Shown one piece after another: positions 21,415 to 53,321 of a stretch of 64,000 bases of DNA; positions within the stretch are counted from its first letter, which is position 1, and each line of letters starts with the position of its first letter. The DNA comes from Longimicrobiales bacterium. GTDB taxonomy: Bacteria; Gemmatimonadota; Gemmatimonadetes; Longimicrobiales; Gaopeijiaceae. The stretch is taken from the NCBI GenBank assembly GCA_965206105.1, contig OZ242201.1, positions 588,852 through 652,851 on the forward strand, given 5' to 3'. The notes beneath the pieces were generated by a model. The model was not told the DNA's origin, did not search any database, and saw only the letters and a program-made list of their open reading frames with translations. A program made the position numbers and the translations under genes.

Positions 21415-22614
21415 ATGGACACGAATCGGCGGGATTTTCTGAAGACGACGGTTGCCGCGGGCGGGGCTGTTGCGGCGGGGGTCACTCCTGTGGGGCTCGC
21501 GGGGTTGGCCGGGGGTGGTGGCGTGGGAGGCGCGTCGACGGCGGAGGGCGCGACGCCGCAGCCCAGCGCCGAGGCACAGACCAGGGCCGCGCAGTCGCTC
21601 CGCATCCTGATCCTGGGCGGGACCGGGTTCATCGGTCCGCACCAGGTCGAGTATGCGCTGTCGCGCGGGCACGAAGTCACGCTCTTCAACCGCGGCCGCA
21701 CCAACTCGCACCTCTTCCCCGGAGTCGAGAAGCTGGTCGGCGACCGCGAGAGCGACCTCTCCGCGCTGGAGGGGCGGAGCTGGGACGCGGTGGTGGACAA
21801 TTCGGCGACCAACGCGCCGCACTGGGTGGAGGCGAGCGCGAACCTGCTCAGGGACTCGTGCGAGCGCTACATCTTCGTCTCGACGCGGTCGGTCTACGCC
21901 GACACCAGCCGGGTGCCGATGTCGATCGAGGCGCCGGTCTGGACGTACGAGAACGCCGGCGTGGAGCGCGGCGCGGATCGGCTCCCCTACGGTCTCGGCA
22001 AGGCAATCTCCGAGCAGATCGCCCGGGACGTATTCGGCGAGGACCGCACCCTGGTCTTCCGGCCCGGCCTCATCATCGGCCCGGGCGACAACACGGACCG
22101 CTTCACCTACTGGCCCGTGCGCATCCACCGCGGCGGCGAGGTCCTCTCCCCCGGCGACGGCACCGACCCGGTGCAGATCATCGACGTGCGCGATTTCGGC
22201 GACTGGCTGGTGCGCATGGCCGAGGCGGGCGAGCACGGCACCTACAACGTCGTCGGCCCGGCGACGCCCCGTCCCATGAGCGAGATGCTCTACGGCATCC
22301 GCGCCGTGACCACCGCCGAGACCTCCTTCACCTGGGTGGATGCGGACTTCCTCCGCGAGGCGGGGCTGCGCCCCTACGGGGAGATGCCGGTGTGGCGCCC
22401 CGCCCGCGACGGGTTCGAGGGCTTCGCGCGCTTCGACCTCACGCCGGAAGTCGAGAAGGGCCTCACCTTCCGCTCGCTCGCCGACACGACCGCGGCGACG
22501 CTGGAGTTCCATTTCTCGCGTCCGGAGGAGCGGCAGGCCCGGGTGTTCAACAGGCTGAGCCCCGAGCGGGAGGCCGAGGTGCTGGCGGCGTGGCATGCGT
22601 CGCGGCGGGGGTAA
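21415..22614 (+). CDS. Tat-exported NAD(P)-dependent epimerase/dehydratase (SDR) family protein
   Basis: Twin-arginine motif NRRDFLK and Rossmann ILILGGTGFIG. Confidence 0.85.
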   Translation: MDTNRRDFLKTTVAAGGAVAAGVTPVGLAGLAGGGGVGGASTAEGATPQPSAEAQTRAAQSLRILILGGTGFIGPHQVEYALSRGHEVTLFNRGRTNSHLFPGVEKLVGDRESDLSALEGRSWDAVVDNSATNAPHWVEASANLLRDSCERYIFVSTRSVYADTSRVPMSIEAPVWTYENAGVERGADRLPYGLGKAISEQIARDVFGEDRTLVFRPGLIIGPGDNTDRFTYWPVRIHRGGEVLSPGDGTDPVQIIDVRDFGDWLVRMAEAGEHGTYNVVGPATPRPMSEMLYGIRAVTTAETSFTWVDADFLREAGLRPYGEMPVWRPARDGFEGFARFDLTPEVEKGLTFRSLADTTAATLEFHFSRPEERQARVFNRLSPEREAEVLAAWHASRRG

Positions 22615-25053: not shown

Positions 25054-25315
25054 CGGCACCGGCGCCGACGATGTGCGGCGCAGACTCCTAGCGCCTCGGC
25101 ACTCTCGCCAGCACGCGAACTTCCGGTAGGGACCCTGGACTTGCGTTAGCGGAGGTAGAACATCTACATAGATTGGACATATACTGTTTCTTTATCTATG
25201 CTTCCGACGACCTGCTCATGTACGGTAATCGACAGCCTTCTGACGCAGGAAGGATACGATAAGGCGCTTAGGGGGTATCTGGCGTGGAACTCGGGCGATG
25301 GAGGTTTGGACCAAC

Positions 25316-28300
25316 ATGCGAACGCGATCCACGGCTGCCGGCTCGACCGCGGCCATGCTCCTCGCCGCGTTGGTTGCGCTTCTGCCGGGGGCGCCGGCCG
25401 GGGCACAGACCAGGGTTTCATCGGACTGGCCGCTCATCCCTCCCGAGGTAGGGGCCGGAGACACGTTCCGCCTGTTGTTCGTGACCTCCACCGAGGTTCA
25501 GCTCAACTCCGACAGCATCCACCACTACAACGCGTTCGTGCAGGCCCGTGCCGCCGCGGGCCATGCGGCCATTCAGTCGCACAGTTCGCTCTTCCGCGTC
25601 CTGGCCAGCACCGCCGCGGTCGCCGCGCGGGACAACACCGGCACGAACCCCGGCACCGATGGCCCCGGCGAGCCCATCTTCTGGCTTGGCAGCGGCGTCA
25701 GGGTCGCGGACGACTACGAGGACCTGTACGACGGGTACTGGGACAGCGAATCCTGGACCACCGAGGCGGGCGGATCGGGATCGGACCAGGCGCTTGGCAT
25801 ACTGAACGGCAGCACGGCGGACGGCCGCTCCAAGCCCAAGTGGCCGTTTCGGAACATTACGACCCAGGGCGAAAGGGTCGGCGGCGGAAAGCTGAACTCC
25901 GGCGGAATGCCCATGTACAGCGTGGACAGGGGCGCTGGTGCCGACGGTACGCTGTCCACCCGGGTCTACGCCCTCTCCTCCGTCTTCCAGGTAGCGCCCG
26001 ACACCCTGGGACCGGGCGGCATCTACGTGGCCGACGCGATGGCCGTCGAGGGCTACACCGCGGCCTTCGTCGTGACGATGGACGGGGCGCTGCCGGATGC
26101 GGCCACAGTGGACTACGAGACCTCGGACGGGACGGCCACCGCCGGATCCGACTACACGGCCGTTTCGGGGACGCTGACGTTCGCCGCGGGCGAGACCTCG
26201 AAAACCGTGACCGTAACGATCCCCGACGACGACGTCCACGAGGACTCCGAGGAATTCAGGCTGACGCTGAGCAACCCGAGCGCCAACGCGCGAGTCCTGG
26301 ACGCGATAGCGACGGGGCGGATCGACGGGGCCGAGCTTACGGCAGAGTTTGTCGGGGTGCCGACCAGTCACGACGGGGCGGCATTCGAATTCCTGCTCAG
26401 TTTCAGCGAAGAACCGGATTCGGCCTTCAGCTACCTGAACCTGAAGGGGGATGGAAGGCGGGCGGGCGCGCTTGCCGTGGCCAACGGACGGTTGGAGCGG
26501 ACGTACCGGTTCGGGTCGGACCACCGGAATCTTGTCTGGCGGATTCGCATCGCTCCGGACAGCGACGTCGCGGACGTTGCGATCACTTTGCTCGCGACGA
26601 CGGACTGCTCGGCGGCCAACGCGATCTGCACCGACAACGGGCGGCCGCTCTCGGTGCCGGTGACGGCGACGGTTCCGGGTCTGGCGCCCTGGCTTGCGGT
26701 GGTCGATGCGAGCGGGGTGGAGGGGGCGAACACGGCGGTGGACTTCACGGTGACGCTGAACCGCGCGGTGGCCGAAACCGTGACGGTGGACTACGCGACC
26801 TCCGACGGGACGGCGACCGCCGGAGCCGACTACACGGCCACGTCGGGAACGCTGACGTTCGCGCCGGGCGAGACCCGCAAGACGGTCTCCGTGCCATTGC
26901 TGGACGATGAAGTCGAGGAAAGCGCCGAGACGTTCACGCTGACGCTGAGCAATGCGTCGGGCGGCCGCGCGTATCTGTCGGACGCCACGGCAACGGGCAC
27001 CATCGCGGACGACGACTCGACGACACCGCCCGTGGGCGTCCCGCAGGGCGATGTATTGGTCAGCAACCTGGACCGACCGCTGGACTGGCGACCCAAGATC
27101 GGCATGGCAGACACTGTCGGCACCAGCCTCAATCAGCGGGGGGCACAGGTCTTTACCACCGGCGATTCAAGGGATGGCTACGAACTGACAGCGGTCGTGT
27201 TGAACTTTGCCTTCTACGAAGAGATCGACGGGGACAATCTGGAGGCATCGCTCCACTTGTTCGGGGTCGCAAGCGACCCGCTCGGGGAGAAGATCCTGGA
27301 CTTCGAGAATCCAACGACGTACGCCAGGTTCCGCGGTGACCGCGGCCCGGTGACGCTCGTACCTGCCGATGGCACGTCGGAGGAGAGCAGGATTCTTCGG
27401 CCCAATACCGACTATGTGATCCAGTTCGCTTTGCACACTTCAGGCATTGAGCGATGGTTCAAGATCGAGGCGACCAACAGTGGCGCTGAATCCGGAACGG
27501 ACGCCTGGCGGATTGCAGACGACAGTCATTGGAAGCAAACCGGCTGGATTGAATGGAGCACCAGAGACTATGTAATGAAGATGAAGGTCCTGGGCACACG
27601 CGTTGAACGTCCGCTTGTATTCGACGCAGGTCTGCCGGTGGCGCTGTCGGTAGCCGAGAACACGCCGGCGGGCACCAGGATCGGCCGACCCTTCACCGCC
27701 TCCCGCACGGATCCGAACGCTGCGTTGACCTATTCTCTGGACGGCCCCGGCAAGAACGATTTCGCGATTGATCCGGCGACTGCGCAGCTGAGGACGAAGG
27801 CGGTGCCGGACTTCGAGAACGCCAGCGAACACGCGCTTTCGATCATTGTGCGGGACGGACAGGATAGCGCCAGGCACGGACTGACGATCACGGTCTTGAA
27901 TCAGGACGAACCACCCGGCAGCCCGGCCGCGCCGACGCTGGAGTCGAGGGACGGCGAGAGTTTGACGGTGTCCTGGCTCGCCCCGGCCAACTCGGGCAAA
28001 CCGGACATTCTCCACTACGACCTGGGCTACCGCCTCGTGGGGTGGCCGGCCGGCGACCCGTTCAGAGACGGACCGCAGGATGTGGCGGACACCGTCGCGA
28101 GAATCCCGGCGCTGGTCGAGGGAGCTACGTACAAGGTGCGGGTGCGGGCGACCAACTCCGAAGGCGATGGGGAGTGGTCCGCGGCGCTCCTTGGTACGGT
28201 GCCGGGAACACCGCCGGTCGCGCCCTCCGTGACCGCCGTGGAACTGGCCGCGGACGAGTCGGGCGACCGGGCCTGGACATACGGAGAGAGCATCGAGGCG

Positions 28301-31042
28301 CGCGTCACATTCAACGAGCCGGTGTCGGTGAGGGGCAGCCCGACCCTTTGGATAACGATCGCGGGCGGGCCGGCGCCACTCGCCCTTGCGTCCGGTTCCG
28401 GGTCTGCAACGCTGGTGTTCGAACACGAGGTGACGGTTGACACGGCGAGCTACACCCGGATCGGGATCACGGAGAACAGCCTGGGATCGACCGGCGGGAC
28501 GATCGTGTCGCGAGCGACCGGAATGGTGGCGGATCTGTCCCACGAGGGCACGGAGCCTACGGCGGAACCGGACCCCGATGAGACGGTGCCCCTGACGGCG
28601 GAGTTCCAGGACATGCCGGAGTCGCACGACGGGAGCCGGATCCGGTTCGGGCTGACGTTCAGCGAGGAGTTGAGTCTCAGCCACCTGACACTGCGCGACG
28701 AGGCATTCGAGGTGACGGGCGGCACGGTGTTCGGCGCACAGCGCAAGGAGACGGGCAGCAACCGCCGCTGGACGATCTCGGTCGATCCGGCCCTGGCGAG
28801 CGAGACGGTGACGATCACGCTGCCGGAGACGACGGACTGCGGGGCGAGCGGCGCGATCTGCACGGGAGACAGCCGGCCGCTCTCGGCGACGGTCACGGCG
28901 ACGGTCGCGGGCGAGACGCACGTCCCGGCGCCCGAGCTGACGCTGGCCGGCGCGAGCGCGACCGAGGGCGGGAACGCGACGGTGGACTTTGCGGTGACAC
29001 TGAGCCGCGCTGCGACGGACACGGTGACGGTGCAGTATGCGACCTCGGACGGCACCGCGTCGGCCGGAACGGACTACACGGCCATGTCGGGCACGCTCAC
29101 GTTCGCTGCGGGCGACACGGCGAAGACGGTGTCGGTGCCTGTGCTTGACGATGCCGACGACGAGAACGACGAGACATTCACGCTGACCTTGAGCAACGCC
29201 TCCGGTGCGTCGCTCGGCAACACCACGGCCACCGGCACGATCGTCGACAACGACACCACCACCGCAACGCCGCTGACGGCGACCTTCGAGAACATGCCGG
29301 AGACGCACGACGGCAGCCGGATCCGGTTCGGTCTGACCTTCAGCGAGGATCTGAGCGTTAGCCACCTGACGCTGCGCGACGAGGCGTTCGAGGTGAACAG
29401 CGGCACCGTCTTCGGCGCGCAGCGCAAGCAGCCGGGCAGCAACCGCCGCTGGACGATCTCGGTCGATCCGGACTCGGCGGGCAGCGCCGTGACCATCATT
29501 CTGCCGGAGACGACGGACTGCGAGGCGAGCGGCGCGATCTGCACGAACGACAAACGGCCGCTGTCGCACTCGCTGACGGACACGGTGGCGGTGGAAGTGG
29601 AGGAGCCGACCGTCCCCTCGCTTGCCGTGGCCGGCGCCAGCGCCACCGAGGGCGACGCGGTCACCTTCACGGTGTCGCTGTCGGAGGCGAGCGGCCAGCG
29701 GGTGACGGTCGACTACGCGACCTCGGGCGGTACGGCGGCGAGCGGAACCGACTTCACGGCTGCATCGGGGACGCTGACCTTTGACGCGGGCGACAGATCG
29801 AAGACGGTGAACGTGACGACGACAGACGACTCGGATAACGAGGAGGACGAGACCTTGACACTGACTTTGAGCAACGCGTCCGGTGCAACGCTCGGCAACG
29901 CGACGGCGACCGGCACGATCGTCGACAATGACACCGCTGCAACGCCCCTGACGGCAACCTTCGAGGACATGCCGGAGACGCACGACGGGAGCCGGATCCG
30001 GTTCGGGCTGACCTTCAGCGAGGAGCTGGACGTCAGCTACCGGACGTTGCGCGACCACGCGTTCAGCGTCACGGGCGGCACGGTGTTCGGCGCGCAGCGC
30101 AAGCAGACGGGCAGCAACCGCCGCTGGACGATATCGGTCGACCCGACCTCGGCGAGCGACACGGTGACGATCACGCTGCCGGAAACGACGATCTGCGCTG
30201 CGACGGGCGCGATCTGCACGGCGGACAACCGGCCGCTGTCGCACTCGCTGACGGACACGGTCATCGACGCGGCCTCGTCGTCCTCGAGTGACATCGCCGG
30301 CGGAACCGAGCAGGGCGAAGTGGAGGCCGCGCTGGCCGCCGCGGGCGGCATCACCCCGGAGGAGGCCGCCGCCGCGCTGTTCGGCGAGGGGCGGCTGAGC
30401 GAGTCGCAGCTGGACGCCCTCGACCGCCTCGGCAACCGGAACGGCCGCTACGACATCGGCGATCTGGTCGCCTGGAGGGAGCGCTGCCGCCAGGGCACCG
30501 CGGACTGCGGGGGAAGCCCCGCGAGCCCGGGGCCGGCGGGTGCGGCGGCGCTGCTTGCGGTCGTGCCCGGCGGCCGCAGAGGGTCGCGGGGTGGTCCGGG
30601 AGGGCGGCGGGGTGCCGGGCGACGGCGGCGGACGGCCGCGCCCCGCCAGGCCCTGGCGATGCTCTTCGCCGTGGCCCTGGCCTGGTCCTGCACCGACGGC
30701 GGCCTGGTCGAACCGGCCGCCCCCGAACGGGCCCCGGACCCGGGCTACCTCACCGTGTCGCTGGTCACGCCGGCCGACAGCCGCGACAGCGGCGTACTGC
30801 TGGAACTCGAGGGCCCGGGCATCGCGGAGGTGCGGGCTCCCGGGTTCGAGCTGTTCGAATCCAGAGCCTCGGGGCGCCATCAGGTCATGGTAGCGGGCGC
30901 GCTGCGGGCGGGCCCCGTCCTTCAGATCCGCGTGCCGGACCGCAACCGGGTCTCGCTCTACCGGGTCCGCGTGATGCAGGTCGCGGGAGAGGACTACGCA
31001 CTCAGGGATGAAGCGGAGTACCGGACGGTGATCACGCGGTGA
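25316..31042 (+). CDS. giant modular surface protein 1 (Calx-beta x4, cadherin-like, FN3, two-Cys repeat x4, shared C-terminal cassette)
   Basis: Signal peptide MRTRSTAAGSTAAMLLAALVALLPGAPAGAQ. Calx-beta signature DY..(T/V)SGTLTF..GE..KTV.V...DD..E..E.F.L.L. Cadherin-like VAENTPAGT...NQDEPP. FN3 (LTVSWLAP...YKVRVRATN). Confidence 0.85.
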   Translation: MRTRSTAAGSTAAMLLAALVALLPGAPAGAQTRVSSDWPLIPPEVGAGDTFRLLFVTSTEVQLNSDSIHHYNAFVQARAAAGHAAIQSHSSLFRVLASTAAVAARDNTGTNPGTDGPGEPIFWLGSGVRVADDYEDLYDGYWDSESWTTEAGGSGSDQALGILNGSTADGRSKPKWPFRNITTQGERVGGGKLNSGGMPMYSVDRGAGADGTLSTRVYALSSVFQVAPDTLGPGGIYVADAMAVEGYTAAFVVTMDGALPDAATVDYETSDGTATAGSDYTAVSGTLTFAAGETSKTVTVTIPDDDVHEDSEEFRLTLSNPSANARVLDAIATGRIDGAELTAEFVGVPTSHDGAAFEFLLSFSEEPDSAFSYLNLKGDGRRAGALAVANGRLERTYRFGSDHRNLVWRIRIAPDSDVADVAITLLATTDCSAANAICTDNGRPLSVPVTATVPGLAPWLAVVDASGVEGANTAVDFTVTLNRAVAETVTVDYATSDGTATAGADYTATSGTLTFAPGETRKTVSVPLLDDEVEESAETFTLTLSNASGGRAYLSDATATGTIADDDSTTPPVGVPQGDVLVSNLDRPLDWRPKIGMADTVGTSLNQRGAQVFTTGDSRDGYELTAVVLNFAFYEEIDGDNLEASLHLFGVASDPLGEKILDFENPTTYARFRGDRGPVTLVPADGTSEESRILRPNTDYVIQFALHTSGIERWFKIEATNSGAESGTDAWRIADDSHWKQTGWIEWSTRDYVMKMKVLGTRVERPLVFDAGLPVALSVAENTPAGTRIGRPFTASRTDPNAALTYSLDGPGKNDFAIDPATAQLRTKAVPDFENASEHALSIIVRDGQDSARHGLTITVLNQDEPPGSPAAPTLESRDGESLTVSWLAPANSGKPDILHYDLGYRLVGWPAGDPFRDGPQDVADTVARIPALVEGATYKVRVRATNSEGDGEWSAALLGTVPGTPPVAPSVTAVELAADESGDRAWTYGESIEARVTFNEPVSVRGSPTLWITIAGGPAPLALASGSGSATLVFEHEVTVDTASYTRIGITENSLGSTGGTIVSRATGMVADLSHEGTEPTAEPDPDETVPLTAEFQDMPESHDGSRIRFGLTFSEELSLSHLTLRDEAFEVTGGTVFGAQRKETGSNRRWTISVDPALASETVTITLPETTDCGASGAICTGDSRPLSATVTATVAGETHVPAPELTLAGASATEGGNATVDFAVTLSRAATDTVTVQYATSDGTASAGTDYTAMSGTLTFAAGDTAKTVSVPVLDDADDENDETFTLTLSNASGASLGNTTATGTIVDNDTTTATPLTATFENMPETHDGSRIRFGLTFSEDLSVSHLTLRDEAFEVNSGTVFGAQRKQPGSNRRWTISVDPDSAGSAVTIILPETTDCEASGAICTNDKRPLSHSLTDTVAVEVEEPTVPSLAVAGASATEGDAVTFTVSLSEASGQRVTVDYATSGGTAASGTDFTAASGTLTFDAGDRSKTVNVTTTDDSDNEEDETLTLTLSNASGATLGNATATGTIVDNDTAATPLTATFEDMPETHDGSRIRFGLTFSEELDVSYRTLRDHAFSVTGGTVFGAQRKQTGSNRRWTISVDPTSASDTVTITLPETTICAATGAICTADNRPLSHSLTDTVIDAASSSSSDIAGGTEQGEVEAALAAAGGITPEEAAAALFGEGRLSESQLDALDRLGNRNGRYDIGDLVAWRERCRQGTADCGGSPASPGPAGAAALLAVVPGGRRGSRGGPGGRRGAGRRRRTAAPRQALAMLFAVALAWSCTDGGLVEPAAPERAPDPGYLTVSLVTPADSRDSGVLLELEGPGIAEVRAPGFELFESRASGRHQVMVAGALRAGPVLQIRVPDRNRVSLYRVRVMQVAGEDYALRDEAEYRTVITR
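30194..31042 (+). repeat. near-identical 849-bp 3' cassette (copy 1)
   Basis: Aligns to 37636..38484 at a constant offset of 7442. I count 10 mismatches and no indels by hand. Confidence 0.9.
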
Positions 31043-31059
31043 CACGGCTCGGCGCGATG

Positions 31060-31099
31060 CCCCCCGGCGTGCACGCTACGCCTCTTGTGCGCCGGGGGG
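31060..31099 (+). terminator. GC-rich hairpin after giant gene 1
   Basis: CCCCCCGGCG, a 20-nt loop, then CGCCGGGGGG. No clear U-tract follows. Confidence 0.35.
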
Positions 31100-31416
31100 G
31101 CGTCATTCCTGCCTTCCAGCCCGGCGCCTGACCGCACTCGGGCGTTCACTCGGACAATAACGTACACAATATTGTACAGTATTTCATGACAAGTTGACAA
31201 TACAATTCCCCACGGTGTTTGCCATATTCGTCGCACATGTTAGAATCTACGCCGTTTTCGTGCAGTTGTTGACGCCGAGTTCCACGTTGCGACCTCGGTT
31301 GGCAGGTTCAGTTCCTCGGTGGGGAAACTGAGCGGAAGTCTCGCTGCGTTCCTCCGACGTTTTGGGAAGCTGGCCGCCGCCAGGTCGCCAAACCCGAATC
31401 GGAGATCGCAAAGCGG

Positions 31417-34400
31417 ATGACACGGAGAGTTCGAGGGATCGAGCTGGTTGGGGATGAGCGAGCGGTTGGAGGTTCCCTCGCACGGCGGCACGGCAGGCGC
31501 CTTGCCGCCGCGTTTCTGTTCGCGTGCGCCTTCGGCGCCCTCGCCACCGGCGCTGCCGCGCAGAACGAGCCCGGTGCACCGAGGAACCTCACGAAGGAAC
31601 TGGCCGACACGAACGACGTGATCGTGAGGTGGGATCCGCCGGATCGCGGCGGTCCCGTCGAGTACTACCAGTACCTGATCGGGGATCCGGAGGGATTCGG
31701 TTCATTCTGGAGACGGATCGCCGGCAGTGATTCGACCACGACATCCTACACCTTCGAGGACGTCCCCGGCGGAGAGAGCCAGTTGAACATCCGGGCGCGG
31801 AACAGCGACGGAGCGGGGCAACGGGCAAGCGTGATCGTGAGAATCAATCGGCCGGCCACCGGGCAGCCGCGAATATCCGGCCGGCGCCATGTGCCCAACC
31901 GTCTGAGAGCCAATCTACACCTTGTCGAGGACGAAGACGGCCTGAGGAAGGAACTCCTGGATGGCTCCTCGCACAACCCGTACCGCTACCAGTGGCTGCG
32001 CGGAGACGCCGAACCGGAAGCGTGCGACTTCACCCGGTTCGGGCGGAAGGAATACGAGATGGGCCTGGCCAAGGAGTACAGGCTGAAGCCGGCGGACGCC
32101 GGCGATAGCCTCAGGGTCGCCGTCTGCTTCCGGGATCTCATGTCCGAGACCAACGTGGAGATGGTGATCAGCGACTATACCGAGGTCATCGAGGCCGATA
32201 CCCGGCCACCGGGGGTCAAGAGAGCGTTCACCAGCGAGGGAGGCGGCGGCGTCACGCTCTTCTTCGACGAGATCCTGAACCCCGGGGCCGACCCGCTGGA
32301 CGACATCGACGAGAACGATCCGCCCGCCGAGTGCGACAGTTCGTGGCTGCCGCCGCGGAGCGCGTTCCGGGTGAGCGTGGAAGGGGGAAAGCGCACCTAT
32401 CGTCCGCGCGAGGTCACCGTCCAGTATTGCAGCAAGAGTACGGGCAGGAGGGACAGAATCGGTCCCCTGGACGGCAGGGTCCACCTGGATCTGGGGACGA
32501 CCCAGCTGTTCAATCGGGGGATCAAGCAGGGACAGTCGGTCAGGGTCATCTACACCGATCCCACGTCGGACGACGACAAGGCCGCCCTGCAGGACCGGAC
32601 CGGCAACGATGTCGTAAGCTTCGACGTGGAGGTCGAGAACCGCTCCACGCAAGCCCCGAGCGACGAGGACGTTTCGGCGGAGCCCAAGCCCAAGTCGGTG
32701 TGGGTACCCCCCGACGGGCGCACCATCCGCATCACCTTCGACGAACCCCTCAACCCGGAGCGCGAATCGCCGGCGGACGCGTTCACCGTGACGCAGGGGA
32801 ACGCTTCCCTGTCCGTCAACAATGCCTTGCTGGATGGTCCGCGCGCGCGGGTCACCCTCCAGGTGTATCCGCGCGTCCGGCAGGGCGGGAGCGTCACCGT
32901 GGGCTACCGGAACCCCGGGGGGAACGACGCCCTGCAGGACGTGGACGGCTTGCTCGCGAAGACCTTCAGCCGCCGGGCGGCGAACAGCTCGGCCCTGAAG
33001 CCCGGGCTGCGGCCCGTATCCGCCGAGGTCCAGGCCGATGGCCTGGAGGTGGAAATGCGTTTCAACACCAGGCTGCTTGAGAACGACGTGTCGCCCGGCG
33101 CCTTCACGATGCAGGTCGGTGGCACGGCGTACACGTTTGGAGACATAGAATTCTTCGACAACGGCAACTACATGCTCCTCTCGCAGTTTGGGGGGGTTGT
33201 CCCGGCGGACGAGACGGTCACGGTGGGCTATACCGAGCCGGCGCACGGCGCTCTGCTCCTGGCCCAGGACTCGAGGACGGCCGGTTCGTTTTCCCGCTTC
33301 GGGGCTACGAACTCATCGGAGTGGCGTGACGTGCCGGTCGCCGTCGACGCGGTCGCGGAGGAGCTGGACGCGTTCGACATTCTGTTCGTGGGGGAACTGG
33401 ATACCACAGTGGGATCTCCGCCGAACAGCGCCTTCAACGTGACGATCGACGGCACGGCGACCACCTTCGATTCGGTTCGAGTGGTCGCATCGGACAGGGT
33501 CCGGATTTCGGGTCTTGCGAGGCAGATGAAAACGGGCCAGCGCGTTGTGGTCTCATACACCCAACCGGCCACCGGGATCGTATTGCAGAGCGCGACAACA
33601 GGAAACGCGCTCGCCGGCTTCGAGCTGAGAGTGACGCTGGTCTTCCCGCCGAAGCCGGTGGGTGCGCAGGTGTCGGAGTCAGTCCGCCACAGGCTCTGGA
33701 TAGAGTTCGACCGCCCGATCTCACCGGACAACTTTCCGCCGACGTCGGCGTTCACAGTGAAGGTCAACGGCGTGGCGCGCACGGTGCACTCGGTCTCCCG
33801 CGGCTCGGCATCCGAACCGGAGTTGGTGTACCTGACATTCCCCACACTCGTGCGCGGCGACCCGGTCACCGTGAGTTACGAAAAGCCCGCGGGCTCCAGG
33901 CGGCTCCGGGGAACCAACTCCAGGGAAGTCGGCAGCTTCAGCGACTACCGGGTGGACAACCCAAATCCAGGCGTGCCGCGGTTGCTGAGACTGACCTGGT
34001 CGCTTGAAGACGACGAGGATAGGTTCAGCAAGGTCTTGGTCAACCTCACTTTCGACGCCGATCTGTCGTCGTCGTTGCCGTCAGAGTCGGCGTTTACGGG
34101 ATCGACGTTCACTGTAGCTCAAGGTGGGGGCGTGAATCGAGTGCGCTTTGACGTAGACGAAGTGTGGCTTGATTCCAACAATCCCAGAAGGCTCCGGCTG
34201 AAGACCTCCATTTTCGAAGCCTCCATAAGAGAAGAAATCGTCATTGGATACACCAAACCCACGTCGGGGAACACGCTCCAGGGCGCACGCGGCCACGAAG
34301 TGCCCAGCTTTTCCTTTACCGGAGATGCCGTCCGGGCAAATGGGCAAAACGCCCCCCCCTCCCCGGTCACGGCGGAGTTCACCCAACTGCCGCTACTTCA

Positions 34401-37400
34401 CGCCGGCGAGGTATTCACCGTCCGCCTCGTCTTCAGCGAGGAGTTCGCCGTGACGGCCGACCAGATCCGGGCTGGGCTGACGGTGACCGGCGGTTCGCTG
34501 ACGGCGCTGGCCCGGGTCACCGACGGCGAGGACCGCCAATGGGATCTGACGGTCACGCCGGACGCGGCGGCGGATCCGGTGGGCCTGACGCTCACGCCGA
34601 AGGAGAGCTGCGAGACGGAGAATGCGATCTGCACGGAGCAGGGCGGCCACCTCGAGGCAGAGGCCGTCGCGGAGGTAGCCGGACGCGAGCCCACGCACGT
34701 GGTGAGCGCGCGGCTGACCTCGCACCCGGGGGCCAACGGGACCTGGGACACCGGCGAGACCGTTACGGCGGCGGTCGAGTTCAGCCGCCAGGTCAGCTAT
34801 CAGGGCCCCCCGGGCGTGACGCCGACGCTGGGGATCACGCTCGACGGGACGCGCCGGGAGGCGGCGCTCACGAGCACGGGCTGGACCGACACGCTCACCT
34901 TCAGCCACGCCGTCACCGCAGCCGACAGCGGCGCCACGACCGTCGTGTTGGTTGCGAACGGCCTGGCGCTGAACGGCACGCTTCTCTTCGATAGCGACGC
35001 CTACCGGCTCGAACCGGAAGTCCCCGCCGACACGCTCTTGACGACGCCGCTGACGGCAAGCTTCGAGGACATGCCCGAGTCGCACGACGGGAGCCGGATC
35101 CGGTTCGGCCTGACGTTGAGCGAGGAACCCAGTGTCGGCCATACGGCCCTCCGCGACGAGGCGTTCGAGGTCACTGGCGGCACCGTCTTCGGCGCGCAGC
35201 GCAAGGAGTCTGGGAGCAACCGCCGCTGGACGATCTCGGTCGACCCGGACTCGGCGGCCGCAACGGTGACGATCACGCTGCCGGAGACCACGGACTGCGA
35301 AGCGGCGGGCGCGGTCTGCACGGCAGACGGCCGGCCGCTATTGGGCTCGCTGTCGGCGACGGTCGAGGGCGAGGAGCGCGGCCCGGAGCTGAGCGTGGGC
35401 GACGCGAGCGCGACGGAGGGCGACACGGTCGCCTTTGCGGTTTCGTTGTCGGTGGCGAGGGACGAGCAGGTGACGGTGGACTACGCGACCTCGGACGGGG
35501 CGGCGGAGAGCGGCACGGATTTCACGGCCGCGTCGGGCACTCTGACCTTCGCCCCGGGCGAGCTGTCGAAGACGGTGGGCGTCGCGACGGCCGACGACTC
35601 GGACGACGAGGAGGACGAGACCTTCACGCTGACGCTGAGCAACGCCTCCGGCGCGGGCCTGCGCGGCGCAACGGCGACCGGCACGATCGTCGACAACGAT
35701 TCAACGGTGCTCACCGTGAGCTTCGAGGATCTGCCGGAGTCACACAACGGGATGGCGCTTAATGTGCGCCTCGCGTTCAGCGAGGAGGTGGAGGTTGGCC
35801 ACGAGACGATTCGCAGCGCGTTGGAGGTGACGGGCGGCTCGGTGACCGGCGTGAGCCGCAGTCAAGGCGCCAGCAACCGACGCTGGAGGGTCACGGTCGA
35901 GCCCGCTTCGAAGACGGACACGGTGACGGTCACGCTGCCGGAGACGACGAACTGCGACGCAAGCGGCGCGATCTGCACCGGGGACGACCGGCCGCTGTCG
36001 CACTCGCTGTCCGCGACGATTGCCCCGCCGACGCTGCTGACCGCGACCTTCGAGGACATGCCGGCCACCCACGACGGGACCCGGATCAGGTTCGGCCTGT
36101 CGTTCAGCGAGGAGCTGGAGGTCAGCCACCTGACGCTGCGCGACGAGGCGTTCGAGGTGACGGGCGGCACGCTGTTCGGCGCTCAGCGCAAGGAGAGAGG
36201 CAGCGACCGGCGCTGGACGGTATCGGTCGATCCGGTCTCGGCGGACAGCACCGTGACGATCACGCTGCTGGAGACGACGGACTGCGACGCGGACGGCGCG
36301 ATCTGCACGTACGACAACCGGCCGCTGTCGCACTCGCTGTCGGACACGGTGGCGGTCGAAGGGGAGGAGCCGACCGTCCCGTCGCTTGCGGTGGCTGACG
36401 CGAGCGCCGCCGAGGGCGACACGATCACATTCACGGTGTCGCTGTCGGCCGCGAGCACCGACCAGGTGACGGTCGACTACGCGACCGCGAGCGGTACGGC
36501 GGAGAGCGGAACCGACTTCACGGCGGTGTCGGGCACACTGACCTTCGAAGCGGGCGACAGTTCGAAGACCGTGAGCGTGGCGACAACGGACGACTCGGAC
36601 GAGGAGGAGGACGAGTCATTCACGCTGACCTTGAGCAACGCCTCCGGTGCAGGCCTCGGCGACGTCACGGCGACGGGCACGATCGTCGACAACGACGCCA
36701 GCGTAACGCCGCTGACGGCGACCTTCGAGGACGTGCCGGAGTCGCACGACGGCAGCCGGATCAGTTTCAGCCTGACGTTCAGCGAGGAGCCCAGCGTGGG
36801 CTACCGGACGCTGCGCGACGAGGCCTTCGAGGTGACGGGCGGCACGGTCTTTGGTGCCCAGCGCAAGGAGACGGGCAGCAACCGCCGCTGGACGATCTCG
36901 GTGGATCCGGACTCGGCGACCGCAACGGTGACGATCACCCTGCCGGAGACGACGGACTGCGAGGCGGAGGAAGCGATCTGCACGGACGACGAGCGGCCGC
37001 TGTCGCACTCGCTGACGGACACGGTGGCGGTGGAAGTGGAAGAGCCGACCGTTCCGTCGCTTGCCGTGGGCGACGCCAGCGCCACCGAGGGCGACGCGGT
37101 CACATTCACGGTGTCGCTGTCGGAGGCGAGCGGCCAGCGGGTGACGGTCGACTACGCGACCTCGGGCGGTACGGCGGCGAGCGGAACCGACTTCACGGCC
37201 GCGTCGGGGACGCTGACGTTCGACGCGGGCCAAACGTCGAAGACGGTGAGCGTCGCGACGATCGACGACGCGGTCGACGAGGAGGACGAGACGTTCACGC
37301 TCACCCTGGGCAACCCCTCCGGCGCGAGCCTCGGCGACGCCGCGGCGACCGGCACGATCGTCGACAACGACACCGAAGCGCCCGAGCCGCTGACGGCGAC

Positions 37401-38484
37401 CTTCGAGGACATGCCCGGCACCCACAACGGAAGCGCGTTCACCTTCGGGCTGACCTTCAGCGAGGAGTTCTCGGTCAGCTACCGGACGTTGCGCGACTCG
37501 GCGTTCGCCGTGACGGGCGGCTCGGTGACCCGGGCGAAGCGCAAACAACCGGCCAGCAACCTGCGTTGGACGATCACGGTCGAGCCGGCTTCGACAAGCG
37601 ACACGGTGACGATCACGCTGCGGGAGACCACGGATTGCGCTGCGACGGGCGCGATCTGCACGGCGGACAACCGGCCGCTGTCGCACTCGCTGACGGACAC
37701 GGTCATCGACGCGGCCTCGTCGTCCTCGAGTGACATCGCCGGCGGAACCGAGCAGGGCGAAGCGGAGGCCGCGCTGGCCGCCGCGGGCGGCATCACCCCG
37801 GAGGAGGCCGCCGCCGCGCTGTTCGGCGAGGGGCGGCTGAGCGAGTCGCAGCTGGACGCCCTCGACCGCCTCGGCAACCGGAACGGCCGCTACGACATCG
37901 GCGATCTGGTCGCCTGGAGGGAGCGCTGCCGCCAGGGCACCGCGGACTGCGGGGGAAGCCCCGCGAGCCCGGGGCCGGCGGGTGCGGCGGCGCTGCTTGC
38001 GGCCGTGCCCGGCGGCCGCAGAGGGTCGCGGGGTGGTCCGGGAGGGCGGAGGGGTGCCGGGCGACGGCGGCGGACGGCCGCGCCCCGCCAGGCCCTGGCG
38101 ATGCTCTTCGCCGTGGCCCTGGCCTGGTCCTGCACCGACGGCGGCCTGGTCGAACCGGCCGTCCCCGAACAGGCCCCGGACCCGGGCTTCCTCACCGTGT
38201 CGCTGGTCACGCCGGCCGACAGCCGCGACAGCGGCGTGCTGCTGGAACTCGATGGCCCGGGCATCGCGGAGGTGCGGGCTCCCGGGTTCGAGCTGTTCGA
38301 ATCCAGAGCCTCGGGGCGCCATCAGGTCATGGTAGCGGGCGCGCTGCGGGCGGGCCGCGTCCTTCAGATCCGCGTGCCGGACCGCAACCGGGTCTCGCTC
38401 TACCGGGTCCGCGTGATGCAGGTCGCGGGAGAGGACTACGCACTCAGGGACGAAGCGGAGTACCGGACGGTGATCACGCGGTGA
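31417..38484 (+). CDS. giant modular surface protein 2 (FN3, many Ig-like repeats, two-Cys repeat x6, Calx-beta x3, shared C-terminal cassette)
   Basis: Signal-like RRLAAAFLFACAFGALATGAAAQ. FN3 (PRNLTKE...IRARNSDG). A series of about 100-aa repeats ends in V(G/S)Y..P; the Ig-like/Big_5-like assignment is tentative. Calx-beta signatures. Confidence 0.85.
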   Translation: MTRRVRGIELVGDERAVGGSLARRHGRRLAAAFLFACAFGALATGAAAQNEPGAPRNLTKELADTNDVIVRWDPPDRGGPVEYYQYLIGDPEGFGSFWRRIAGSDSTTTSYTFEDVPGGESQLNIRARNSDGAGQRASVIVRINRPATGQPRISGRRHVPNRLRANLHLVEDEDGLRKELLDGSSHNPYRYQWLRGDAEPEACDFTRFGRKEYEMGLAKEYRLKPADAGDSLRVAVCFRDLMSETNVEMVISDYTEVIEADTRPPGVKRAFTSEGGGGVTLFFDEILNPGADPLDDIDENDPPAECDSSWLPPRSAFRVSVEGGKRTYRPREVTVQYCSKSTGRRDRIGPLDGRVHLDLGTTQLFNRGIKQGQSVRVIYTDPTSDDDKAALQDRTGNDVVSFDVEVENRSTQAPSDEDVSAEPKPKSVWVPPDGRTIRITFDEPLNPERESPADAFTVTQGNASLSVNNALLDGPRARVTLQVYPRVRQGGSVTVGYRNPGGNDALQDVDGLLAKTFSRRAANSSALKPGLRPVSAEVQADGLEVEMRFNTRLLENDVSPGAFTMQVGGTAYTFGDIEFFDNGNYMLLSQFGGVVPADETVTVGYTEPAHGALLLAQDSRTAGSFSRFGATNSSEWRDVPVAVDAVAEELDAFDILFVGELDTTVGSPPNSAFNVTIDGTATTFDSVRVVASDRVRISGLARQMKTGQRVVVSYTQPATGIVLQSATTGNALAGFELRVTLVFPPKPVGAQVSESVRHRLWIEFDRPISPDNFPPTSAFTVKVNGVARTVHSVSRGSASEPELVYLTFPTLVRGDPVTVSYEKPAGSRRLRGTNSREVGSFSDYRVDNPNPGVPRLLRLTWSLEDDEDRFSKVLVNLTFDADLSSSLPSESAFTGSTFTVAQGGGVNRVRFDVDEVWLDSNNPRRLRLKTSIFEASIREEIVIGYTKPTSGNTLQGARGHEVPSFSFTGDAVRANGQNAPPSPVTAEFTQLPLLHAGEVFTVRLVFSEEFAVTADQIRAGLTVTGGSLTALARVTDGEDRQWDLTVTPDAAADPVGLTLTPKESCETENAICTEQGGHLEAEAVAEVAGREPTHVVSARLTSHPGANGTWDTGETVTAAVEFSRQVSYQGPPGVTPTLGITLDGTRREAALTSTGWTDTLTFSHAVTAADSGATTVVLVANGLALNGTLLFDSDAYRLEPEVPADTLLTTPLTASFEDMPESHDGSRIRFGLTLSEEPSVGHTALRDEAFEVTGGTVFGAQRKESGSNRRWTISVDPDSAAATVTITLPETTDCEAAGAVCTADGRPLLGSLSATVEGEERGPELSVGDASATEGDTVAFAVSLSVARDEQVTVDYATSDGAAESGTDFTAASGTLTFAPGELSKTVGVATADDSDDEEDETFTLTLSNASGAGLRGATATGTIVDNDSTVLTVSFEDLPESHNGMALNVRLAFSEEVEVGHETIRSALEVTGGSVTGVSRSQGASNRRWRVTVEPASKTDTVTVTLPETTNCDASGAICTGDDRPLSHSLSATIAPPTLLTATFEDMPATHDGTRIRFGLSFSEELEVSHLTLRDEAFEVTGGTLFGAQRKERGSDRRWTVSVDPVSADSTVTITLLETTDCDADGAICTYDNRPLSHSLSDTVAVEGEEPTVPSLAVADASAAEGDTITFTVSLSAASTDQVTVDYATASGTAESGTDFTAVSGTLTFEAGDSSKTVSVATTDDSDEEEDESFTLTLSNASGAGLGDVTATGTIVDNDASVTPLTATFEDVPESHDGSRISFSLTFSEEPSVGYRTLRDEAFEVTGGTVFGAQRKETGSNRRWTISVDPDSATATVTITLPETTDCEAEEAICTDDERPLSHSLTDTVAVEVEEPTVPSLAVGDASATEGDAVTFTVSLSEASGQRVTVDYATSGGTAASGTDFTAASGTLTFDAGQTSKTVSVATIDDAVDEEDETFTLTLGNPSGASLGDAAATGTIVDNDTEAPEPLTATFEDMPGTHNGSAFTFGLTFSEEFSVSYRTLRDSAFAVTGGSVTRAKRKQPASNLRWTITVEPASTSDTVTITLRETTDCAATGAICTADNRPLSHSLTDTVIDAASSSSSDIAGGTEQGEAEAALAAAGGITPEEAAAALFGEGRLSESQLDALDRLGNRNGRYDIGDLVAWRERCRQGTADCGGSPASPGPAGAAALLAAVPGGRRGSRGGPGGRRGAGRRRRTAAPRQALAMLFAVALAWSCTDGGLVEPAVPEQAPDPGFLTVSLVTPADSRDSGVLLELDGPGIAEVRAPGFELFESRASGRHQVMVAGALRAGRVLQIRVPDRNRVSLYRVRVMQVAGEDYALRDEAEYRTVITR
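37636..38484 (+). repeat. near-identical 849-bp 3' cassette (copy 2)
   Basis: See 30194..31042. Confidence 0.9.
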
Positions 38485-41400
38485 TGGGTCCGGGGCGTGG
38501 ACGCGGCGCGGACGATGGTATCGGCACGGCAAGTGGGTGCAGCGGCCCCGGTGTGCCAGGCTCCCCGACCCGCGCATGGGTCGCGGCCGCATGGCTGGTC
38601 CTGTCATTCGCATGCCTCGTTCCCCAAGCTGCCGCCGCCCAGCCCCCCCCTCCGCCTCCCCGCAAGATGTGGGTCCTGGCGTGGACCGAGGACTTCAACG
38701 GCACCACGGTCGACTGGTCGAAATGGAACCACAGGAGCGAGGCGCTAAGGAGAGTTCGCACCCACGGCGGACGCAGGATCCATTGGCGGTACGAGCACGA
38801 CAACGTCGGTCTCGCGAACGGCCACCTGGTCTTGCGCAACACCCGGCAGCAGCAGGGCGGCAGTTTCGACATGGTCAGGGCCGCCGCGATCGACACCAAG
38901 GGCAAGTTCGAGCAGACCTACGGGTACTTCGAAGCCAGAATCAGGATCGCCCCCACCGCCGACGGCATCCACACGGCCTTCTGGCTTCAGAACGACGATC
39001 GGGACAAGAGGCCCAGTGAAGGTGGGGTCGGTGGCCCCTCCGACGGAGCCGAAATCGACATCCTCGAGTCGGTGTATACCAGCAACCACTATGGAATGGC
39101 CGTCCATTGGGACCAATACAGGTCGGTCAGCGAGAAACTGGACTTCGCTCCGATACACGACGGACAGTTCCACGTCTATTCGCTCGCGTGGACACCGGAC
39201 GGCTACACGTTCTATGCGGATGGAGAGCGGAAGACGGAGATGTCGGATGGCCTGTCCCACAGTGACGGATACGTCATTCTCTCCACCGGGGTGAGCTGGG
39301 GTCAGGGCAATGCCCACACCGGGACGTTCCCCAACGAGGCCCTGGTGGACTGGATCCGGGTGTACGAGTTGGCGGACGACCCCTCGTTCAACTATGCGCC
39401 GGTAGGCAAACCCACCATATCGAGTCTGGGCGGCACGCTGATCGCATCCGCCACCGACATCCGCGACGAGGACGGACTGACCGACCCGGCCTTCGAGTGG
39501 CAGTGGTACGTCGGCGATGGCGGCGACGGCGTTGGTGAGGCGATCTCCGGAGCCACCGAACCCGAATACGCGGTCAGGCAATCCGACTTCGGCAGGTCGC
39601 TCATTGTGCAGGTGGCCTTCACCGACGACCGCGGCACCGAAGAGAGCGTCTACAGCGATCCGTTTCCCGTCACTCATCCGCCGGTGATCACCAGCACCGG
39701 TCCGTTCACGGTGAACGAGGGGCAAACGTCGGTGGCGGCCCTGACGGCGACGGACGAGGACACGCCGGTCGAGGACCTGGTGTGGTCCATCGAGGGCGGC
39801 GCCGACGGAGATCACTTCACCTTGACCGGGAGCAACGTGCTGGCCTTCCGGGTGGCCAAGGACTTCGAGGCGCTGGACGACACCGGTCGCGACGGAAGCT
39901 ACGAAGTCGTGGTGCGGGTGGGCGACGGCGCGAACACGGCGAGCGATACCCTGGCCGTCACGCTCCTGGATGTGTACGAGGAGCAACCCCGGCGTCCCCC
40001 TCCCCCTCCCGGCAAGCGCTGGGTACTGGCGTGGAGCGAGGGCTTCAACGGCACCACGCTCGATTGGTCGAAATGGAACCACAGGAACGAAACCTATCGG
40101 CCTGAGCGCACGCATGGCGGACACAGGATCCATTGGCGGTACGACCACGGCAACGTCAGTCTCGCGAACGGCCATCTGGTCTTGCGCAACAATCTGCAGC
40201 AGTCGGGCGACGGTGCCGTCGTGGTCAAGGCTGCCGCGATCGACACCAAGGACAAGTTCGAGCAGACCTACGGCTATTTCGAGGCGAGCATCAGGATCGC
40301 TCCCACCGCGGACGGCATCCACACGGCCTTCTGGCTCCAGAACGACAACCGGCACATGAAGGCCAGCAACGGCGGTGTCGATGGGCCCTCCGACGGAGCC
40401 GAAATCGACATCTTCGAGTCGGTTTACACCCAGAACCTCTATGCCGTGGCCGCGCATTGGGACGATGGCGCCAGCGTCTCGGCAGACGCGGACTTCGCTT
40501 CGATACACGACGGACAGTTCCACGTCTATTCGCTCGCGTGGACACCGGACGGCTACACCTTCTACGCGGATGGAGAGCGCACGACGGAGATGTCCGGTGG
40601 CCTGTCCCACAGTGACGGATACGTGATTCTCTCCACCGGCGTGAGCTGGGCTGGCGGCAATGCCAATACCGGCACGTTCCCCAACGAGGCCCTGGTGGAC
40701 TGGATCCGGGTGTACGAGCTGGCGGACGACCTCTCGGTCAACGCTGAGCCCGAAGGCAAACCTACCATCTCGGCTGGGCCGAACGGGAGCGGCACGCTGA
40801 TCGCATCCGCCACCGACATCCGCGACGAGGACGGACTGACCGACCCGGCCTTCGAGTGGCAGTGGTACGTCGGCGATGGCGGCGACGGCGTTGGTGAGGC
40901 GGTCGCCGGGGCCACCGAACCCGAATACGCGGTCAGGCAATCGGACTTCGGCAGGTCGCTCACTGTGCAGGTGGCCTTCACCGACGACCGCGGCACCGAA
41001 GAGAGCGTCTACAGCGATCCGTTTCCGGTCACTCACCCGCCGGTGATCACCAGCACCGGTCCGCTCACGGTGAACGAGGGGGAAACGTCGGTGGCGGCCC
41101 TGACGGCGACGGACGAGGACACGCCGGTCGGGGACCTGGTGTGGTCCGTCGAGGGCGGCGCCGACGGAGATCACTTCACCTTGACCGGGGGCAACGTGCT
41201 GGCCTTCCGGGTGGCCAAGGACTTCGAGGCGCTGGACGACACCGGTCGCGACGGAAGCTACGAAGTCGTGGTGCGGGTGGGCGACGGCGCGAACACGGCG
41301 AGCGATACCCTGACCGTCACGCTCCTGGATGTGGATGACGAGACAGCGCCGGAGCTTCAGGGCGCCGAGGCGAGCACGGACTCGGTGGTGCTGACCTACA

Positions 41401-43450: not shown

Positions 43451-43551
43451 CGACCCGGGGCGCGCCCGTGGTGCGGGCGATTCGCGCGAATGCCGCATTG
43501 GGCACAACGGCTCATTCCTGCGGTGCGGATTGGGAAGGCGCACCAAAAAGC

Positions 43552-43588
43552 GTAAAGCAAACATTACCATATGTCGTGTTTACTTTAC
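43552..43588. repeat. 37-bp AT-rich bipartite element, copy D (units inverted)
   Basis: GTAAAGCAAACATTAC-CATAT-GTCGTGTTTACTTTAC, upstream of giant gene 4. Confidence 0.8.
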
Positions 43589-53318: not shown

Positions 53319-53321
53319 GCG

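Follow-up and report, generated by a model that had tools for sequence, protein, structure and literature searches.

A C-terminal cassette with a candidate internal signal peptide in giant surface proteins of Palauibacterales

The signal peptide of bacterial lipoproteins (Sec, Lgt, Lsp, and Lnt) has a basic n-region, a short hydrophobic h-region, a small residue at position −1, and a Cys at +1, followed by a tether and a folded domain. Here, we describe a module of 265 residues with the same parts, which ends all four giant open reading frames (ORFs; genes g1 to g4) in a 64,000-nucleotide (nt) stretch of DNA from a Longimicrobiales bacterium (assembly GCA_965206105.1, contig OZ242201.1, positions 588,852 to 652,851), referred to below as the window. 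This cassette differs from a lipoprotein signal in that its fused signal lies ~1800–2200 residues inside an already exported protein, in an n-region of 20–90 residues with ~13 Arg, and in its residues ahead of the Cys, with Trp at −2 in 82% of family members and, in 75%, Ala or Thr at −3 instead of Leu. We tentatively read it as a C-terminal module for export and anchoring that is specific to one lineage (Palauibacterales, Gemmatimonadota) and has an internal signal peptide at its core. The most fitting description is a C-terminal cassette that combines an internal signal peptide with a lipobox-like junction, in which known parts are newly arranged. To our knowledge, an internal lipoprotein signal has not been described in any bacterial protein, and our literature search found neither an internal lipobox nor such a signal. 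The same search gave nothing relevant on sorting signals of Gemmatimonadota or Palauibacterales, including within the Palauibacterales paper.

The cassette also resembles the tripartite sorting signals (LPXTG/sortase, PEP-CTERM/exosortase, GlyGly-CTERM/rhombosortase, and MYXO-CTERM), which are likewise lineage-restricted, multi-copy, exchangeable C-terminal tags on large surface proteins. Its Cys motif, weak hydrophobic stretch, and Arg cluster recall their succession of motif, transmembrane (TM) segment, and basic tail, most of all in the Cys-containing MYXO-CTERM. However, tripartite signals place motif, TM segment, and basic cluster in the last 25–40 residues, whereas 117 residues follow the cassette Cys. 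Furthermore, the cassette has no TM-like part before its Arg tract (the stretch there is often absent), no NCBIfam match, and no sortase-type gene nearby, and its conserved order of basic, hydrophobic, and motif is the mirror image of these tags.

Three other systems are comparable in part. The C-terminal domain of the type IX secretion system (T9SS) is also an Ig-like β-sandwich that forms the very C-terminus of giant adhesins exported by Sec, in a lineage of the Fibrobacteres–Chlorobi–Bacteroidetes (FCB) group, but it shows no hidden Markov model (HMM) or fold match to the cassette domain, which is preceded by a basic tract, an h-region, and a Cys. Cohesin–dockerin pairs offer a functional analogy only, as a small helical module with an Asn/Asp-rich loop ends a large extracellular protein and a β-sandwich is potentially cell-anchored. 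Unlike in those pairs, there is no dockerin sequence or fold match, the loop is single instead of a duplicated F-hand, the likeness to cohesin is weak (E ~0.01), both partners lie on one polypeptide, and binding within the cassette is putative. Finally, in flavivirus polyproteins and in two-signal constructs of the endoplasmic reticulum (ER), the latter in PMC2174215, a second, internal signal drives export of what follows it, and signal peptidase then cuts the products apart. Those cases concern the ER of eukaryotes, and hydrophobic spans separate their exported parts, whereas the cassette has no such span and its candidate peptidase is the bacterial lipoprotein one.

The order Palauibacterales, cosmopolitan in the sea and associated with sponges, lacks a cultured member, and the cassette tags its largest surface proteins (up to 7341 amino acids, aa), in several copies per genome. 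It probably decides how adhesins and glycosidases are displayed to hosts and particles. Owing to its absence from Pfam and NCBIfam, thousands of proteins are annotated as "hypothetical." Being short and portable, the cassette is also a candidate tool for surface display.

The cassette and its Cys junction

All four cassettes keep the same order of elements, each on the + strand. In g1, the cassette starts with the Ser run AASSSSSD (30269–30292), a Ser-rich linker, followed by an acidic four-helix module (30299–30484) that contains the motif LDRLGNRNGRYDIGDLVAW (30419–30475). The CX6C loop CRQGTADC (30485–30508) comes next and is found in 175 of 207 family members, with its first Cys nearly invariant. 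It is followed by a weak Ala/Leu-rich uncharged stretch that we call H1 (GPAGAAALLAVVPGG; 30530–30574) and by an Arg-rich tract modeled as disordered (30575–30649). A second hydrophobic stretch, H2, then leads into the junction (ALAMLFAVALAWSC, that is, ALAMLFAVALAWS|C; 30650–30691, Cys codon 30689–30691). An acidic, Pro-rich tether, also modeled as disordered (TDGGLVEPAAPERAPD; 30692–30739), connects the Cys to a terminal eight-stranded β-sandwich (30740–31039) that ends at the stop codon (31040–31042). An earlier note, made from the letters of the window, had proposed such a shared, ordered C-terminal cassette in four giant proteins; every element is present in the order given, and the peptides it quoted are exact. 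The pattern LGN.NG.[YF]D.GD occurs four times in a six-frame translation of the window, once in each giant gene.

We built a family profile from 35 tails and searched it against 1.84 billion cluster representatives, as the earlier note had suggested doing for other genomes. The profile matched 1072 representatives at E ≤ 1e-3 and 174 at E ≤ 1e-30, and 76 genomic loci carry the whole cassette, far beyond chance. The matched proteins are 250–7341 aa long, and the match extends to the last residues in nearly all of them. Residue statistics below refer to 207–208 non-redundant cassettes; the parser for the junction allowed 12 residue types at −1.

Cys at +1 is invariant (208/208), and position −1 is always small (S 135, G 46, A 27; 208/208). 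Position +2 is T, G, or A, and an acidic residue stands at +3 or +4 in 164/207, after which the Pro-rich tether begins. The last charged residue lies 11–24 residues before the Cys (median 15), and the Cys lies 113–135 aa from the C-terminus (median 117). The cassettes thus display the lipobox features of Cys at +1, Gly/Ala/Ser at −1, a basic n-region, and an uncharged h-region of about 7–22 residues. The tethers are also alike: CGDGATEPP and CTEDPPPEV occur in N-terminal lipoprotein candidates of the same genomes, and CGDGIVDP and CTEGSVGP are found in cassettes. The junction is internal in g1 to g4 and in 76/76 loci, and N-terminal only in a split variant (L077) and in an orphan gene (P0190), described below.

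Taken as a pattern, the basic n-region, short h-region, small residue with Cys, tether, and folded domain have the anatomy of a lipoprotein signal peptide, placed internally. The "Ser-Cys" that the earlier note recorded at the end of H2 is this invariant small-residue/Cys junction of the lipobox type, the most informative feature of the cassette and one that the note missed. Because the junction is invariant, H2 reads as an internal signal peptide and not as a permanent TM helix. The junction is certainly signal-peptidase-like, and its residues favor type II over type I because the Cys is invariant and the tether is lipoprotein-like.

We also considered a twin-arginine translocation (Tat) signal in the cassette and rejected it, as neither the motif S/T-R-R-x-F-L-K nor the Pfam TAT_signal model matched the tails. 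A genuine Tat signal was detected elsewhere in the window, in the ORF at 21415–22614 (RRDFLK).

Membrane topology and proposed processing

Insertion costs were estimated as Hessa-type per-residue sums for 207 cassettes; the scale is position-independent, and the sums only approximate those of DeltaG predictors. Upstream of the Arg tract (H1), the best 19-mer has a median of +11.6 (+5.1 to +35.9), with 0/207 at ≤2, and the best 12-mer has a median of +2.9. For H2, the best 19-mer has a median of +4.1 (−1.05 to +9.6), with 18% at ≤2, and the best 12-mer has a median of −0.5. An H1-like Ala-rich 12-mer occurs in 121/207 cassettes and is absent in ~42%; whole clades lack H1 or have a Pro-rich version (L053, L054, L060, L071), and in L053, L054, L057, and L061 the last helix of the module leads straight into the Arg tract. 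H2 is universal and is the only conserved hydrophobic segment. H1 was also rejected as a TM helix by Kyte–Doolittle hydropathy. By these estimates, H1 is not a conserved membrane span, because its 19-mers are never TM-like and it is absent in ~42%, and H2 suits an h-region and not a TM anchor, because its 12-mer core is favorable but its best 19-mer costs +4.1.

The charges alternate along the cassette. The helical module is strongly acidic (median net charge −7.5), the flank upstream of H2, comprising spacer and Arg tract, carries a median of +12, and the terminal domain is acidic again (median −5). This pattern fits an out/in/out arrangement in which a cytoplasmic Arg segment would lie between two exported parts. 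The earlier note had reached a similar picture of a sorting or anchoring cassette with a cytoplasmic-looking Arg segment, and that part of it agrees with the charges; the helical hairpin and the dockerin-like loop that it added are not supported.

In that hairpin, H1 and H2 would both span the inner membrane uncleaved, with the Arg loop in the cytoplasm and both the giant body and the small domain outside. The hydrophobic/Arg-rich/hydrophobic order does exist in g1 to g4 and in 121/207 relatives, the charge pattern agrees with it, and cleavage is not required. However, the "first hydrophobic stretch" of the earlier note, though present in all four genes, is a weak Ala-rich 12-mer with no TM-like 19-mer (+5 to +36 in the family, 0/207 at ≤2), and it is absent or Pro-rich in ~42%. 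H2 offers just 11–24 uncharged residues (median 15), and a hairpin leaves both the small-residue/Cys junction and the L077 split unexplained. The note had named a lack of predicted TM segments as grounds against its own hairpin, and these values come close to that. The hairpin reading therefore fails on the computed costs, and we consider it quite improbable.

The model that we favor, although it could well prove wrong, is that H2 serves as a second, internal Sec signal that is processed at the Cys and releases a lipidated β-sandwich, which then anchors the giant protein. First, the N-terminal signal would export the giant body by Sec. The Arg tract would then resist translocation and stay in the cytoplasm, in line with the positive-inside rule, and the h-region would engage a translocon as a second N-in/C-out signal and export the β-sandwich. 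Next, the junction would be processed at the Cys, most likely through lipidation by Lgt and cleavage by Lsp, giving a lipid-anchored β-sandwich and leaving the helical module as the end of the giant protein. These products, made in a 1:1 ratio, would probably stay bound to each other, and the small lipoprotein would be a self-encoded membrane anchor, with the binding itself putative. One may speculate on a kinetic escape, in which the second signal enters a different translocon before the upstream chain has finished crossing and cleavage then uncouples the two, so that no stable upstream TM segment is needed. A more specific version is possible but doubtful: a secretory polyprotein in which the internal lipoprotein signal would yield a cargo and its own lipid-anchored receptor, with the acidic helical module docking non-covalently on the β-sandwich.

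If the Cys is processed in this way, the lipoprotein pathway acts on internal sites, and cargo and anchor come from one precursor. The cassette would then be a new self-contained surface-anchoring system and the first natural internal substrate of Lgt and Lsp. It would also pose a question for Sec, as two exported domains would flank a cytoplasmic segment of charge +12 with no membrane-spanning helix between them.

Several observations weigh against this two-signal model. At the junction, most cassettes lack the Leu-like −3 and Ala/Ser/Thr-like −2 residues of a lipobox. Only 37/207 pass the lipobox core of PROSITE PS51257, a figure that rises to 207/207 once Trp is permitted at −2. Among 20 N-terminal lipoprotein candidates taken from the window and the loci, the boxes read L-[AS]-[AG]-C, and none has Trp at −2. 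Most serious for the model, the cassette has no conserved hydrophobic segment ahead of the Arg tract that could bring the exported chain back into the cytoplasm. The dockerin analogy failed in every search (Pfam, Protein Data Bank [PDB] profile, Foldseek), the cohesin-like fold matches are weak (E 0.008–0.03, template modeling score ~0.46), and the L077 split is known from a single genome and could be a decaying locus. In addition, according to PMC2174215, same-sense signals >60 residues apart in ER model proteins lead to linear insertion, with the second acting as a stop-transfer sequence.

Linear insertion in the cassette would mean that the whole upstream chain, Arg tract included, is exported, H2 stops transfer as an N-out/C-in segment, and the β-sandwich stays in the cytoplasm. 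Where a hydrophobic segment lies far beyond a first signal, this is the default (PMC2174215), and it makes an extra TM segment unnecessary. Yet it would put +12 outside and an acidic domain inside, contrary to the positive-inside rule, would rest on an h-region that is short for a stable anchor, and would leave the invariance of the Cys and small residue unexplained. Moreover, in L077 the same β-domain sits behind an N-terminal signal peptide and would hence be exported there. We regard linear insertion as very unlikely.

The residues around the junction also raise the question of signal peptidase I (SPase I). H2 could be an internal Sec signal cut by this enzyme with no lipid attached, and the Cys could serve, for example, in a disulfide with the Cys of the helical module that re-links the products. 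The −3/−1 rule of SPase I is obeyed by 205/207 cassettes, Trp at −2 is atypical of lipoboxes, and the nearly invariant Cys at the end of the helical module would supply a partner. A bulky residue at −2 is normal at SPase I sites. On the other hand, +1 is normally not fixed at SPase I sites, yet here Cys is invariant; the SPase I sites of the giant proteins themselves look like A-x-A|Q; and the acidic, Pro-rich tether matches the lipoprotein N-termini of the same genomes. Processing by SPase I is an improbable alternative. Each of the alternative topologies leaves more facts unexplained than the two-signal model.

Helical module, Arg tract, H2, and β-domain lie in a single stop-free frame in 76/76 loci, and the frame is constant although spacer and Arg tract together vary from 0 to 91 aa. 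Genes translated separately would not share one frame, which argues that the fusion is under selection. In g1 to g3, the stretch from the Arg tract to H2 has no in-frame start codon (ATG, GTG, or TTG), save a Met inside H2. Some homologues have a Met ahead of H2, but it is not conserved, and on both counts we discarded a separate translation start for the small domain as a conserved feature. It is nonetheless conceivable that adjacent genes for a giant protein and a small lipoprotein are annotated as one merely for want of an intervening stop codon in a genome of 69% guanine-plus-cytosine (GC). Stop codons are rare at such GC content, split and orphan versions exist, and the occasional Met just ahead of H2 would provide a start. 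Against this stand the shared stop-free frame in all 76 loci despite very different tract lengths, the lack of a start codon in g1 to g3, and the poor conservation of the Met, and we find an annotation artifact hardly credible.

Rare Arg codons as a pause site were rejected as well, since none is enriched in the tract and Arg codon usage is unremarkable. Several homologues (P0163, P0169, P0174, P0178, P0042) change frame within the GC-rich Arg tract or immediately ahead of it and continue for 150–300 residues in the wrong frame. These shifts are probably indel errors or signs of pseudogenes and decay, with alternative C-termini a further possibility. Programmed frameshifting in the Arg tract (P0163, P0169, P0174, P0178) was set aside, as the shift positions differ.

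In one genome, the cassette is naturally split (L077, on a 3.8-Mb contig at 36× coverage). The giant gene stops immediately after the CX6C loop (…RCRTGETRCGGAPDPR*), and a 276-nt spacer of lower GC content with a GGAGG separates it from a small gene of 132–149 aa. This gene starts with MMATKPRTQVADRGSSMRASAGAVLLVVATAWSC and encodes H2, the Cys, and the β-domain ((MMATKPRTQVADRGSS)MRASAGAVLLVVATAWSC-TDGPVGP…), with the invariant residues of the β-domain all intact. Judged by its sequence, H2 is here an ordinary N-terminal signal peptide of the lipoprotein type, and, should the locus be functional, its two halves have to work in trans. The orphan gene P0190 (MFSGAPGRGPAARSATGWLRAMMLAAVTVAWGC…) encodes Arg tract, H2, and β-domain alone and lies 3′ of a complete cassette gene on four contigs from four samples. 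Searches with the helical module or the β-domain by itself returned mostly gene-caller fragments of frameshifted long-read assemblies. Most other small homologues are such fragments or remnants beside an integrase, and only L077 and P0190 look like real separate genes. One remnant, in locus L082 (2305–3420), consists of H2, Cys, and β-domain directly after a lipoprotein gene of lower GC content (MRLITMMATMLLVAC…), beside an integrase; here an insertion seems to have truncated a cassette gene.

Helical module and terminal domain

We used AlphaFold2 with the family alignment to model the g1 tail. Four helices are predicted at residues 17–77, with a predicted local distance difference test score (pLDDT) of 72–84. 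Spacer and Arg tract are disordered, H2 is a low-confidence helix, and the region around the Cys is disordered. When modeled separately, the helical module again has four helices and one loop (pLDDT 79). It contains the invariant motif D-x-L-G-N-x-N-G-x-Y-D-x-G-D-x-L-x-W-x-x-R-C.

The earlier note had likened part of this motif to a single dockerin or EF-hand-type Ca loop, an identity that we reject on three grounds. The dockerin HMM (Pfam PF00404) did not match the last 313 aa at E ≤ 10. A profile of the module searched against all PDB sequences gave no dockerin, and a Foldseek search of the modeled module against the PDB gave no dockerin or EF-hand of any weight (best E-value 2.8). The sole match of the profile was to 14 residues of a tannase at E = 0.4, in which NGRYDLGDLLSWI (window 30437–30478) aligns with SGDYDLGDLFSWID at the C-terminus of the Lactobacillus plantarum enzyme (3wa6, 4j0g); this match is probably due to chance. 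The dockerin fold has two duplicated loop-helix (F-hand) Ca sites, and no internal duplication of the motif was seen. The spacing also differs, as the invariant residues of N-x-N-G-x-Y-D-x-G-D fall at positions 1, 3, 7, and 10, and the ligands of a canonical 12-residue Ca loop at 1, 3, 5, 7, 9, and 12. The loop may still hold a metal site of some kind.

The terminal domain is indeed β-rich, as the earlier note had stated. AlphaFold2 predicts a sandwich of eight strands at residues 162–260 of the g1 tail (~100 aa) with pLDDT >90. In a Foldseek search of the whole cassette, the best matches are an Ig-like protein (3esm), cohesins (2xdh, 2vo8, 7uvg; E 0.01–0.3), and YcnI, at E-values of 0.008–0.3 and target-normalized template modeling scores of 0.28–0.48. 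The cohesins tie with YcnI and a generic Ig-like protein in this ranking. The Ig/cohesin/YcnI-like fold suggested for the model is a lead and not an identification. A profile of the β-domain searched against PDB sequences gave only chance matches to laccases.

The position and fold of this domain could point to another function, as the recognition domain of an outer-membrane secretion or attachment machine in the manner of the T9SS C-terminal domain, with Arg tract and H2 as accessories. The architecture is that of T9SS cargo, with a Sec signal, a giant adhesin or glycosidase body, and an Ig-like C-terminal domain of ~100 aa, and Gemmatimonadota belongs to the FCB group. However, the type A and type B sorting-domain models were among the NCBIfam models that gave no match, no T9SS C-terminal domain appeared among the top 50 Foldseek matches, and no secretion genes adjoin the loci. 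The basic tract, h-region, and invariant Cys directly upstream would also be left unexplained. We give this reading little credence.

Pfam and NCBIfam scans of the last 313 aa at E ≤ 10 gave no meaningful match (FIT1_2 at E = 0.05 is noise). The earlier note had held that a match to a known sorting or anchoring domain would speak against its proposal; we looked for one in both databases and found none.

Distribution, gene neighborhoods, and the four giant genes

A word-indexed search returned 42 relatives, one of them named Candidatus Palauibacter. For the genomic set, 120 stretches matched in species-representative genomes, and 76 loci were kept. With one exception, these come from metagenome-assembled genomes labeled Longimicrobiales, Candidatus Palauibacter, or Gemmatimonadota, many of them from sponges. 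The sole exception is a "Gammaproteobacteria" bin, probably a result of mis-binning. On complete chromosomes, the cassette occurs in five or six or more copies.

The passenger parts vary widely and include Calx-beta, cadherin, and FN3 domains (g1), GH16 with SWM repeats (g4), FN3 arrays, and leucine-rich repeats. One complete protein of 312 aa (P0035) is hardly more than a signal peptide and the cassette. Because the passengers differ between family members, the cassette behaves like an exchangeable sorting module.

The co-occurring exosortase or rhombosortase that the earlier note had envisaged did not turn up: neither the window nor the 6-kb flanks of the 76 loci contain a sortase, exosortase, rhombosortase, signal peptidase, or secretion gene. 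Recurrent neighbors are an AlpA-like regulator, a TraG/VirB4-like ATPase, CagX/VirB9, and an integrase. In 10–17 loci (e.g., L004 7126–11639), the cassette gene is followed directly by the AlpA-like regulator, the TraG/VirB4-like ATPase, and the CagX/VirB9 protein, and a tyrosine integrase is close by in 13 loci (e.g., L010 3044–4030). Because these genes and integrases adjoin them, some giant genes are located at the edge of integrative conjugative elements. We rejected the neighbors as dedicated processing enzymes, as genes of such elements together with an integrase point to synteny or mobility and not to sorting.

The window has a GC content of ~69%, and g1 to g4 lie in tandem on the + strand, with GC content at third codon positions (GC3) of 0.86–0.89. 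The 1914-aa product of g1 (25298–31042; GC3 0.86) has an N-terminal Sec signal peptide, four Calx-beta domains, cadherin and FN3 domains, unassigned repeats, and the cassette. The giant ORF g2 spans 31417–38484, with its cassette at 37711–38484. The third gene is read as two ORFs (38481–42215, continued at 42212–43450) but is one gene, 38481–43450, with a 1-nt deletion near 42206 and its cassette at 42677–43450. The diverged cassette of g4 (43665–49688; cassette 48891–49688) retains all elements and has a longer Arg tract. Identity to the g1 cassette in DNA and protein is 98.7/97.4% for g2, 91/88% for g3, and 68/58% for g4.

The near-identity of g1 and g2 (98.7% in DNA) covers exactly the last 848 nt (30195–31042; 37637–38484), beginning ~75 nt ahead of the g1 Ser run, and drops sharply upstream. 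This block looks like the outcome of gene conversion, or of a swap of the cassette in one piece, between paralogues whose bodies differ. The break in g3 (42150–42290, compared with g4 48365–48515) is the absence of one G, from CAAGGACG to CAAGACG, within a Calx-beta domain, and the sequence suggests either a recent pseudogene or an assembly indel. The first part of g3 (38481–42215) also contains an internal tandem duplication of ~530 aa, comprising a GH16-like domain and the domains next to it, at approximately residues 60–590 and 590–1130, with high identity.

Just upstream of the cassette, a repeat of ~95 aa alternates with Calx-beta domains (g1 28000–30250, with equivalents in g2 to g4). 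It follows the pattern LTATFEDMPE[ST]HDG…FSEE…RKxxGSNRRWTISVDP…TITLPETTDCxAxGAICTxDxRPLSHSL and has no Pfam assignment at E ≤ 0.001.

At their other end, the giant bodies have cleavable Sec signals of their own, which typically end in A-x-A|Q. The Q after A-x-A is found in the N-terminal signals of g1 to g4 (e.g., 25316–25420) and in homologues P0046–P0091, as in …AGAQT, …SASAQT, and …AQAQT. It resembles the "Q-rule" of SPase I substrates in Bacteroidetes, a rule that, according to PMC5837995, is not valid for the whole FCB group.

The intergenic regions have features of their own. A GC-rich hairpin lies 3′ of g1 (31056–31104; CCCCCCGGCG / CGCCGGGGGG). Unusually AT-rich stretches are found upstream of g1 (25150–25230), g2 (31150–31260), and g4 (43540–43660), and the one 5′ of g2 includes the palindrome AATATTGTACAGTATT at 31168–31183. 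Their composition suggests separate promoters or operator sites. The g2 and g3 genes overlap by 4 nt (GTGA at 38481–38484). Farther along the window, on the minus strand (52290–54374), are two adjoining paralogous genes, both with a DUF3667 zinc-ribbon-like N-terminus (PF12412).

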